From NCBI GenBank assembly GCA_965371665.1, contig CBDUZI010000001.1, forward strand, positions 9,411-73,410: DNA of 64,000 nt, written 5' to 3'. Shown piece after piece: positions 55,601 through 58,600 of this stretch. The notes under the pieces were generated by a model that worked only from the letters and a program-made list of their open reading frames with translations, searched no databases and was not told the origin of the DNA. A program made the translations under genes and the position numbers. Within the stretch, counting starts at the first letter, position 1. Every line of letters begins with the position of its first letter. The stretch is from an uncultured bacterium (GTDB lineage Bacteria; Oederibacteriota; JAAXVQ01; JAUVAV01).

Positions 55601-58600
55601 AGGACAGGCTGGTTAATCGCCCGCGGAGTACCGGCTTCTATTTTGTGGGTTACATGGCCTTCATCATCAATACGTATAAGGGGTTCCCGCGAATCAACCC
55701 AGAGCTGGTAATCGTGGTTAAAGGCTGCCTCGGTTCCATACGTTATGTCAGCTTCGTAGGCTAAGGCGCGGTCAAAGCTTTTAACCATCTTTTCCCCATC
55801 CCAGATGCTTACCACTGGCTGAGAGCTTTCCAAGTCATACTCACCTACGATGGCCACCGTGATGCCTAGAGGGGCTAGCAGGACTGCCATTTCCTCCCCT
55901 TGTTTAAGGGCTAAATCGATGTTCGGTGTGGACAGTTTAGTGCCTTGATTCAAGAGAGAGACCGCAAAAAGGCCCATGGCCGCGGCCTCGGTCTTGCCCT
56001 GGCCTGTTGCCAGTTGGAGGGCATATCCCACTGTGTCGATAGCCGGAATATCCGAGCGGAAGAGCAGGCGCACGAAATAAAAAACTTTCCTCCAGCCGCG
56101 GCGTTGCCTCATCTCAGAAAGAGCCAGGGCTGCCATGATTTGATTGCGATGCAGGGTAAAGCCTTCCAGCCGGATGCGGCTTTCAGGGTCGGATTCGGAC
56201 GCGGCCTGATCTCGTTTTTGTTTTTCAATGGTCACAGCGGCGATGGTCAGGGCTCGAATTCTTAGCGTTTCCAATGCCTGCTTGGCTTCTGCCAGATCCA
56301 TCCTTTGCAACTGCCTGCGGAGCCGATCGGTTTCCGCAAGCAGTTGAGGGAGGGACATTTTTTCAAATTGTACCCGGAGTTTGTTAACCTGGTTCGCCTG
56401 ATCACGAAGTTTGATCGTGGTTCTGCGTGAGGCAAAGGCCTGGTAGCGGGGCATGGTAAAATGATAGATGAACCAACCTCCGGCAATTAAACCGCTGGCG
56501 ATAAAAAACAGCCATGAGCCCAGGCCGACAAGAACCAAGCCGGTGACCAACCCTGCTGCCAATTGACCAAACTGCACGATCAGATAAAGTGAACTTACGA
56601 CACCGGCTGCCACTACCGGCATGACCAGATACGGCAAAAATCTTCCGGCCAGAGTCCTGAACTGTTTCTGGACTGTCACTAACTCGAGCCGCATCCGCTG
56701 TTCAGCCAGGAGGGCGCGGACGTGATCGATCACTGCGATAACGGCCCCCACTAGAATGAGAATGCAAATGCCCGTGCCTAAGCCTAAGCCAATCGCTTGC
56801 GGCAGCAAGATAATGACCGTTACGATGATGCCTCCCACCACCGGAAGTCTTTTGAAAATTTTGGTAAAATAAGCCTGAGTCTGTTCCCCTTCAGGTATAC
56901 CGGGAATATAATCACCGCTAATGGCAAGCTGCTCGGCCAGGGTCTCGGGCTTGAAAAGCATTCGAGTTCCTAAAACCGAAAAAAGCAGGATGATGGCAGC
57001 CACCACGAACACATAAGTCAAGGTCATAGGCGCGAGGACCACGCCAAACAAGGCGGGGGCTAACATGATAAGCATGGTGATCACAGCGCTCGACCCTATG
57101 GCCGCTACCACGCCAAAATAATCCATTTGTAGGGGCAGAATGCGTTCGCGCGGCTTCTTTTGCTCTGTTTGTTTAACATCCCGCGCCGACCGGATGGAAA
57201 TTTTATAGTATATCGTGTTCAGGGCAATCGCGAGAGCAACGGTGGCCAATCCTCCGATAAGGATAGGCAGACCGGAGAGGGAAAGTACACTGCCAGAAAC
57301 CAAGATTCCAGCGGTGTGAAGCAAATTCGGCAATACCATCACTCCGAACAGAACATAATTGGTCCGGCCGCCCAAGCCGCGCTTCTCTAACTGTGTCATG
57401 AACCATAATAAGACGACAGAGCCCAAGGTCAGACTAATAATCGCGACCAGTTGACTGCCCAAGGTTACAAAAATGTCAGGCATGGCTTGCACGAGCAGTA
57501 CAGCATATATCACTGCAATCCCAACCGAAATATATTTAATGTAGCGCTGGACCTGTTTTCGTCCGATTTCAGTTTTTTGAAGTTTTTTCAGAGGTGGAAA
57601 AACCAGGGTAATGCCCATTATAATCAAGCTAGCTAAGAAAAAGGGAGCCAGTCCCAGGCCGAAGATGGAAAGATTATCCAACGCCCCGCCTAGCATAAAG
57701 TTCATCCCACTCAGCGCCGCCGCATCGTTCAACCTTAGAAAGGTAAATAAAACCGGACTTACGCCTGGAATCGGCACACAGCAACCGATGAAATAAAGGC
57801 CGATAACACCTATTGTAATCAGCCCTCGTCTAACCAACACCCAGGGAATGCCTTGACTAAAGCGACGGAAGTAGATAACCGCATCTTCCTTGGCAGCCTG
57901 CATCCACTCCCGCCAGTTTAGTCTTTGTTCCACGGCAGGTTCCGCCGGCTCCCCGGCGGCGGTTTCCTGAACTACTCTCTGGGACGGTACGCTAGGTGCC
58001 TCTCCGTATATCCGGGTTATTTCCTCAATAGCTTTGGCCAGTTCATCGGGGCGCGAATCTCGAGTACGGAAATCCACAACCAGACGGTTGGCGTCTCTCA
58101 CAATTTTTAACAAAGTCTGGTTCAAAGCGGCTCGATCTACGGTTTCACCTCTGGCCAGATGCTCGTAGAATCTGCCTAACTGGGTAAGTTCGCTGGCCAA
58201 GTACTTCCCGGTTCGCTGCAAATAGGCCAGATAGGCTGAGCGTTCTTCCTCAGAAAAATACGCCATGCCTTCAGCAGTGTGGCCATATAGATAGGTTAGT
58301 TCCTGATCCAACAGCCATGCCTTTTCAACTAGAACGGCTTTTGCCGATCTGGCAATTTGAAGTCTTCCATGTGATTTTAAGTCGCGCAGGCGGGTATTTC
58401 GCGCTTCCCGAAAATCCTGCATGGTCATCCAAACATCCGTGCCTTCTAATTCTATATTGAGTTTCGCTATCGCCATTGCCAGTTCGGACGGCCTCATGCC
58501 CCGGCGCCGAAAATCCACGTTTTGGAAATCCCCTCTGCGGCGGCCGGCATCGAGCGTGATGTGAATCAAGGTTTTATTTAAGGCTGCCCGATCCAGGGCC

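Follow-up and report, generated by a model that had tools for sequence, protein, structure and literature searches.

We analysed a 64,000-nt stretch of DNA (hereafter the window) from an uncultured marine-sediment bacterium of the phylum Oederibacteriota/FCPU426, corresponding to C1:9411-73410 of assembly GCA_965371665.1 (contig CBDUZI010000001.1; genome G000, contig C1 in our numbering). A single giant open reading frame (ORF) on the minus strand enters the window from one end, and inside it a SecY-like channel domain is followed, in the same chain, by a two-helix membrane hairpin and a SecA-like ATPase. Few known proteins are as conserved and as constant in architecture as SecY, whose gene is normally a stand-alone, single-copy housekeeping gene. 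Here, the giant gene encodes one conserved internal cassette composed of a SecY paralogue, a two-helix hairpin and a SecA paralogue, that is, a natural SecY-SecA fusion, and we regard this identification of the cassette as nearly certain. The giant gene and the parts of its cassette are listed below in window coordinates, with positions in the giant protein as giant amino acids (aa).

25663..64000, minus strand: giant ORF, continuing past the window end (open frame, hydrophobicity)
52495..58002, minus strand: conserved SecY-hairpin-SecA cassette, giant aa 2900-4735, with a further transmembrane (TM) segment at its end
56710..57852, minus strand: SecY-like 10-TM channel domain, giant aa ~2950-3330 (Pfam, NCBIfam, PDB, AlphaFold2/Foldseek)
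56734-57669, minus strand: Pfam core of the SecY domain, giant aa 3011-3322
56413..56652, minus strand: two-helix membrane hairpin, giant aa ~3350-3429
53119..56445, minus strand: complete divergent SecA-like ATPase, giant aa ~3419-4527
55987..56010, minus strand: Walker A motif ATGQGKTE of the SecA-like module (alignment)
55654..55674, minus strand: Walker B/DEAD-type motif RIDDEGH, canonical IVDEVD (alignment)
54229..54255, minus strand: helicase motif VI LFGRVARQG, canonical LRGRTGRQG (alignment)
53281..53325, minus strand: two-helix-finger motif LRMFLKNRDPLMRYK, canonical LRAYGQKDPLLEYK (alignment)

The giant ORF was open from window position 25663 past the window end, with 12,778 aa encoded inside the window, and on the contig it ran a further 2.7 kb to window-equivalent 66699, giving 13,678 codons from stop to stop without an internal stop (C1:35073-76109 with the stop codon). 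The probable start was a GTG at codon 18, preceded by AGAGGTGAT, or an ATG at codon 35, and the chain then begins with a membrane anchor. Hydrophobic segments, >40 in number, were spread along the chain, and the soluble stretches between the downstream TM clusters reached 1,000-2,500 aa. A Pfam scan of the whole protein returned just a GH5 cellulase-family domain, SecY, SecA_DEAD, the SecA P-loop domain and a weak SecA wing/scaffold match.

An earlier note on this DNA had claimed a full-length SecY-like channel at 56690-57880 inside the giant protein, and the domain was confirmed at 56710-57852, with matches far stronger than chance would give. The translation of window 56401-58200 (query P0001) matched Pfam SecY (PF00344) with E = 5.9e-41 and 141.2 bits (gathering threshold 32.2) over model positions 1-304 of 306, and the NCBIfam SecY model TIGR00967 over positions 3-409 of 414. 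In the PDB, SecY chains of E. coli, Thermus, Thermotoga and others were matched end to end, the best of them being E. coli SecY (residues 30-438 of 5mg3_Y, E = 1.4e-35). An AlphaFold2 model of giant aa 2925-3430, built on a 148-row alignment, reached a mean predicted local distance difference test (pLDDT) score of 87.9 and a predicted template modelling (pTM) score of 0.80, and its best Foldseek matches in the PDB were all SecY, then Sec61alpha, with alignments of ~400-430 columns (5aww_Y, E = 6e-17, TM-score 0.75; 5gae_g, target-normalised TM-score 0.80). Every conserved SecY motif quoted in the note was found, with VPIPG in TM1, LGGAL...SIFGLGLAPFFLASLII in the plug and TM2, LLWFMTQLEKRGLG in TM4/5 and FKPETLAEQLAISGDYIPGIPEGEQTQAY in the C5 loop. 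When 63 positions conserved at 80% or more among 140 canonical SecY sequences were taken as reference, 35 were kept in the window copy and 18 in all six embedded copies, and the structural Gly and Pro residues and the plug GGAL motif were retained. Alignment to E. coli SecY showed hydrophobic residues at five of the six pore-ring positions (L, F, L, I and I at what we take to be residues 82, 86, 191, 278 and 408). The NCBIfam SecY2 models scored 96 and 89 bits, relative to cut-offs of 353 and 250. By profile hidden Markov model (HMM) and by fold, the embedded domain is a member of the SecY family, and by model scores it is neither the housekeeping equivalog nor SecY2.

The hallmark of housekeeping SecY, a free-standing gene of ~440 aa in the ribosomal operon (rplO-secY-adk), was absent from the embedded copy and was found elsewhere in the same genome, a metagenome bin of 165 contigs with 98% completeness. 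There, contig C35 carries a canonical secY (375.8 bits, 445 aa) between rplO and adk in the ribosomal-protein operon, in the order rpsE-rplO-secY-adk-map. A canonical secA (437.8 bits, 905-aa open frame), a single secE and a single secG were also present, and all four canonical genes lie away from the giant gene. Within this genome, the embedded SecY was 27% identical to the canonical one, and the canonical secY and secA were ~27-30% identical to the embedded copies. In the housekeeping SecY of one family (f3; G015, G022, G033 and G038), we observed two matching pieces (query residues ~13-270 and 285-387) within one frame of 458-513 aa, which suggests an insertion of ~30 aa between the pieces, in the cytoplasmic loop region. 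Window positions 54500-59500 were covered without differences by contigs of three marine-sediment metagenome runs of one study, which are possibly the source of the assembly, so that independent support comes mainly from the genomes of relatives. One of these contigs (35 kb, depth ~100x) spans that whole region, and in the two further runs separate contigs join the SecY domain to its flanks on either side.

SecY TM10 is separated from the SecA-like module by two long hydrophobic helices (giant aa ~3350-3429) that are conserved in the relatives. Basic residues stand before TM1, after TM10 and after the hairpin, and because they flank both hairpin ends, the positive-inside rule predicts a cytoplasmic location for the SecA-like module, with the hairpin predicted to return the chain to the cytoplasm. 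A role of the hairpin as a surrogate of SecE/SecG is speculative. Directly after SecY, SecA_DEAD (PF07517) was matched at aa 3424-3664 (E = 8e-16, 58.6 bits, gathering threshold 24.6), followed by the SecA P-loop domain at aa 3971-4190 (27.0 bits, threshold 27) and a weak match to the wing/scaffold family SecA_SW at aa 4381-4495 (17.7 bits, threshold 26.7). The NCBIfam SecA models matched the module collinearly over positions 233-678 of 814 with E = 1e-30 to 2e-31, and SecA chains of the PDB matched it at E = 6.5e-14. The SecA2 models gave 40-94 bits, relative to cut-offs of 725-1100, and on the cassette as a whole the SecY2/SecA2 models scored lower than, or comparably to, the general SecY/SecA models. 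An alignment of the module with the canonical SecA of the genome and the corresponding regions of two relatives displayed nucleotide-binding domain 1 (NBD1), the preprotein cross-linking domain (PPXD), NBD2, the helical scaffold and the wing in canonical order, with EAGTP coming after Walker B (IDDEG). TGxGK, the D-E pair of Walker B and GRxxRQG were invariant among five embedded and 15 canonical SecA sequences, and the aromatic tip of the two-helix finger was retained, as Phe here and as Tyr in G003 and G014. The C-terminal zinc finger (CxCxSGxxxKxCC tail) was absent from the module in this alignment, and large insertions were present. The top 34 Foldseek matches of an AlphaFold model of the module were all SecA or SecA2, from E = 5e-21 and over the whole length, with low global TM-scores. 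The third part of the cassette is a full-length divergent SecA paralogue, with intact ATPase motifs and the two-helix-finger motif kept.

The cassette recurs in relatives as a unit. In BLASTP comparisons of the giant proteins, the ~1,830 aa comprising SecY, hairpin, SecA and the closing TM segment formed one collinear block, in which aa 2900-4735 of the window protein corresponded to aa 1000-2853 of the G003 giant (40% identity, 1,219 bits) and to aa 2723-4516 of the G014 giant (41% identity, 1,264 bits), and this block was by far the best-conserved part of the three proteins. Of 40 relatives searched, five from the same family or order (G002, G003, G004, G006 and G014) carried embedded copies with 40-49% identity, and TM segments of the same chain flanked the cassette in all relatives that have it. 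The uninterrupted giant frames measured 9,337 aa in G003 and 11,265 aa in G014, the latter being cut by the contig end. The GH5-containing region of the window protein (aa 1084-1667) was matched in the G003 giant at aa 6544-7158 and 7732-8201, and in the G014 giant at aa 6610-7079; its position differs by thousands of residues in the relatives while SecY, hairpin and SecA are kept together, so that the cassette travels as a unit within otherwise shuffled giants. The C-terminal 760 aa were conserved with G014 alone (47% identity). A further giant frame of the same order (G011:C8:54988-83982, 9,665 aa) contains an N-terminal, very divergent full-length SecY (PF00344, E = 3.7e-24), which shares 24% identity with the window copy and stands alone in the set of 99 genomes of the phylum.

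With a limit of E <1e-45, 6 of 99 species of Oederibacteriota/FCPU426, all within two families, had the embedded family, and across ~36,000 genera the carriers of high likeness belonged to Oederibacteriota alone. As far as searched, the fusion is confined to giant multi-pass membrane proteins of a few lineages of this phylum. Only in the upper bands of likeness did SecA_DEAD lie within 5 kb of the SecY match, with no such case in the lower, canonical bands (0/273 and 0/21). A search of 1.84 billion representative proteins returned four embedded-family members among the best 150 of 4,379 matches (3,157 aa, 2,037 aa and two fragments), the other top matches in these 150 being SecY of ordinary size with 24-33% identity; very long proteins seem to be missing from this library, and rarity outside the phylum is not proven by it. 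A pattern search with a four-sequence alignment, which gives narrow patterns, retrieved two embedded copies and canonical Planctomycetota SecY only. No longer SecY-bearing protein was found in a word-indexed homologue search, whose crowded listing makes this weak evidence, and a search of the unnamed ESM Atlas clusters with the SecY domain gave no usable match. A quick maximum-likelihood tree grouped the six close embedded copies in one clade (Shimodaira-Hasegawa-like approximate likelihood-ratio test 98). Its stem measures 1.59 changes per site, and it lies outside every canonical SecY sampled, among them the housekeeping SecY of the phylum, which form a tight clade. The embedded clade may have arisen by duplication of a host secY or by transfer, the tree being a quick one with long branches.

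Several known systems share parts of this arrangement. The housekeeping SecYEG and SecA belong to the same two families and share the fold, the order of elements, the ATPase motifs, the plug motif and the two-helix finger, whereas the cassette is fused in one chain inside a 13.7-kaa protein, is 27-30% identical to them, lacks the C5-loop Arg and the zinc finger, carries SecA insertions and two extra TM helices, and lies outside the ribosomal operon in a patchy distribution, being dispensable in the lineage. The accessory Sec system of Gram-positive serine-rich adhesins likewise has a second divergent SecY and SecA (SecA2/SecY2) encoded with a very large surface substrate, but there they are separate genes with Asp and glycosyltransferase partners, while here channel, motor and presumed substrate are in one polypeptide, in a host of a different phylum and envelope type. 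Asp1-3, glycosyltransferase partners and a serine-rich repeat substrate were all absent from the Pfam matches of the neighbours scanned, no dedicated search being made for them. Divergent SecA_DEAD and preprotein-binding domains have been described in TM-rich giant proteins, mainly of Omnitrophota, by West-Roberts et al. 2023 (bioRxiv 10.1101/2023.11.21.568195), who proposed a role of these domains in the export of the giant itself, reported the SecA part to lack scaffold and wing, posed its membrane attachment as a question and mentioned SecYEG as separate canonical genes only. A 2026 survey of Omnitrophota giant proteins (10.64898/2026.06.07.730766) lists a PF07517 architecture cluster, with SecY unmentioned. 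The window protein resembles the SecA-bearing giants of these two reports in its size, its many TM helices and a fast-evolving SecA-like domain after TM helices, and likewise has a carbohydrate-active domain and sugar import genes nearby; like the giants of West-Roberts et al., it is an ORF of thousands of aa with numerous TM segments and a SecA_DEAD apart from the canonical SecA of the genome. It differs from them in its explicit SecY, its alignable scaffold with a two-helix finger and its phylum. Hodor megaplasmids (bioRxiv 10.64898/2026.02.21.707213) carry a secYGE operon beside genes for proteins of >7,300 aa, in which an extra Sec channel is tied to giants as here, but the genes are separate, SecA is unfused and the hosts are of Bacillota type. 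An engineered SecY-SecA fusion supplemented with SecE and SecG translocates preprotein in vitro (Sugano et al. 2017, PMC5562318) and has the same SecY-then-SecA order, although it is an artificial, self-standing construct of canonical proteins; the arrangement of the cassette is therefore mechanically feasible. An embedded SecY was unreported in the literature searched (SecY together with giant proteins or Omnitrophota, supplementary domain tables not covered). SecA-like domains in giants are already published, and a channel and motor within their own presumed substrate are undescribed in the papers searched.

Long extracytoplasmic loops of membrane proteins require SecA in the Sec pathway. 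Because of this requirement and because the giant protein has soluble stretches of up to ~2,500 aa, we infer that the cassette is a private translocase, with self-export as its best-supported putative function. The housekeeping machinery would insert the N-terminal region of the chain together with SecY, after which the tethered SecA, held at its own SecY on the cytoplasmic side, would push the long extracytoplasmic segments through that channel at the expense of ATP. Its own chain, copies next to it or possibly the adjacent giant proteins could serve as substrate, and the essential translocon would be spared blockage during the minutes needed to make such a chain. The earlier note had suggested that the protein carries its own pore, an idea favoured by the outcomes of all four checks that the note had named (the SecY HMM match, the predicted fold, the canonical secY in the ribosomal-protein operon and the separate clade in the tree) and strengthened by the fused SecA-type motor downstream, which the note had missed along with the hairpin; the channel activity is putative. 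Taken as a whole, the explanation that joins the identity of the cassette to a role as a private Sec-type translocase is in our judgement moderately probable; the self-export function, judged by itself, is close to an even call, and the most complete version, a self-contained covalent translocon in which channel, accessory helices and motor export the giant's own downstream segments, appears doubtful.

Alternatively, the giant chain may be a polyprotein that is cut, so that the cassette, or SecY and SecA apart, would be released as a free accessory Sec system of the SecA2/SecY2 kind, serving other fragments or neighbouring giant proteins. Proteolytic processing has been raised by West-Roberts et al. 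for giant proteins with peptidase domains, but Pfam detected no peptidase domain in the present one. Additional Sec channels that are dedicated to very large surface proteins do exist as separate genes (accessory Sec; Hodor secYGE), and the giant gene is immediately preceded on its strand by two other huge ORFs (7,289 and 3,041 aa), which would fit such a system; however, no conserved internal start precedes SecY, the Met before TM1 being present in G000 alone, and TM segments of the same chain flank the cassette in all the relatives. We consider a released Sec system unlikely.

Several observations weigh against reading the cassette as a working translocase of the giant protein. The embedded SecY reached 148.1 bits with TIGR00967, below the equivalog cut-off of 253.6, and the SecA-like module stayed far from its equivalog score (106 bits relative to 814 for PRK12904), with moderate local and low global confidence in its AlphaFold model (pLDDT 73, pTM 0.36). 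The sixth pore-ring position, presumably 187, is T in the window copy and variable among relatives; the C5-loop Arg (E. coli R357, PGIRPG), which is R in 87% of the 140 canonical SecY sequences, is lost (P here, in IPEG; A or T in relatives, in KAPG/KTPG), and the TM5 motif GIGNGxS is altered to GLGG[KR]xx. These three changes may mean that the classical coupling of channel and motor is altered, and a relaxed need for SecA docking where the motor is tethered is a speculative explanation of the Arg loss. Pfam on the whole protein and secE/secG searches of the genome revealed nothing like SecE or SecG within the giant chain, and no SecA-like region followed the G011 SecY in searches with an embedded-plus-canonical SecA HMM and with Pfam on the next 1,464 aa. 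The embedded SecY evolves ~8x faster than the canonical SecY of the same genomes, as seen in its longer tips in the tree, and several near-complete members of the family, including G008 and G010 (both 100% complete), lack the cassette, from which it follows that it is accessory and dispensable for the lineage. The SecY- and SecA-like domains might be relics without translocation, kept as an anchor in the membrane, as a scaffold or as a conformational module that uses ATP for some other task. The long stem and tip branches, the lost Arg, the changed TM5 motif, the scores under the equivalog cut-offs and the SecA-less G011 SecY would all suit this explanation, but invariant ATPase catalytic motifs and a kept two-helix-finger motif would not, nor would the persistence of the 10-TM fold, the plug motif and a mostly hydrophobic pore ring across lineages that are 40-49% identical; moreover, SecY, hairpin and SecA form the best-conserved block of the protein and are collinear, which a mere anchor would not need. 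Relic domains therefore seem quite improbable. Lastly, the possibility that assembly had mis-joined a canonical secY, as raised in the earlier note, or a secA as well, or that ORF calling had read through separate genes, has a negligible probability even for a bin of 165 contigs and was excluded as far as these data go, because canonical secY, secA, secE and secG exist elsewhere in the genome (the first two ~27-30% identical to the embedded copies), 13,678 codons contain no stop, the SecY-in-giant arrangement recurs with its flanks in the independently assembled G003, G014, G002, G004 and G006, and contigs from three runs, possibly the source data, cross both borders unchanged.

As a natural SecY-SecA fusion, the cassette represents a channel-motor pair able to evolve as one polypeptide, and the embedded SecY offers an answer to the question of how the SecA domains of SecA-bearing giants reach the membrane. 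A private translocase would provide a testable model for making and exporting proteins of >10,000 residues without jamming the essential translocon. For structural biology, a naturally tethered 1:1 SecY-SecA complex is on offer, and for evolutionary biology, a fast-evolving SecY paralogue in which an otherwise conserved SecA-coupling Arg has been lost. If the proposal holds, the TM regions before the SecA domains of Omnitrophota, Actinomycetota and other giants may be unrecognised, more diverged SecY, and 'bring-your-own Sec' may be a general solution for making giant envelope proteins.

Beyond the cassette, three further features were located in the window.

62632..63345, minus strand: GH5 cellulase-family domain, giant aa 1119-1356 (Pfam)
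23496..25338, minus strand: two genes for ABC-transporter permeases (BPD_transp_1), immediately downstream of the giant gene
261-1571, minus strand: sugar-type solute-binding protein gene, downstream of the giant gene

FCPU426/Goldbacteria have been reported to have a cellulose-degrading lifestyle (PMC7031533), and together with the GH5 domain and the adjacent sugar ABC importer this suggests that the giant protein may be part of a surface apparatus that attacks polysaccharides. On the same strand downstream (window 261-25338), the genes encode the two ABC permeases, an Fn3-like protein, an OmpA-domain protein, a 1,204-aa protein with a weak S-layer SlpA match, a FlgD-Ig protein with a weak match to a type IX secretion system (T9SS) sorting domain, a 1,738-aa DUF6259/NPCBM-associated protein and the sugar-type solute-binding protein, a set that suggests an envelope and glycan-uptake neighbourhood. 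Upstream, beyond the window end, two more huge ORFs follow head-to-tail on the minus strand (C1:76214-98080, 7,289 aa; C1:98284-107406, 3,041 aa), neither of which gave a SecY or SecA match; the three huge ORFs together comprise ~24,000 codons and ~72 kb, or 2.4% of the genome.

Within the giant protein, a 256-aa TM-rich module is duplicated with 77.5% identity (giant aa 795-1050 and 1829-2082; window 63550-64317 and 60454-61215), a recent internal duplication whose copies flank the GH5-containing region on both sides, and weaker internal repeats were seen between aa 1426-1684 and 1709-1841. The N-terminal domain of ~630 aa (giant aa 68-700, window-equivalent 64600-66498) belongs to no Pfam family and is common to >150 large proteins of 1.1-3.2 kaa, with E down to 1e-196. 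Where named, the organisms carrying it were FCPU426, Firestonebacteria, Omnitrophota and Elusimicrobiota, with several paralogues in G000, and its nearest ESM Atlas clusters were Omnitrophota hypotheticals. In many of these proteins the domain is fused to normally cytosolic enzymes, including aldolase, phosphoenolpyruvate (PEP)-utilising enzymes, SIS, phosphoglucomutase and glycosyl- or methyltransferases.

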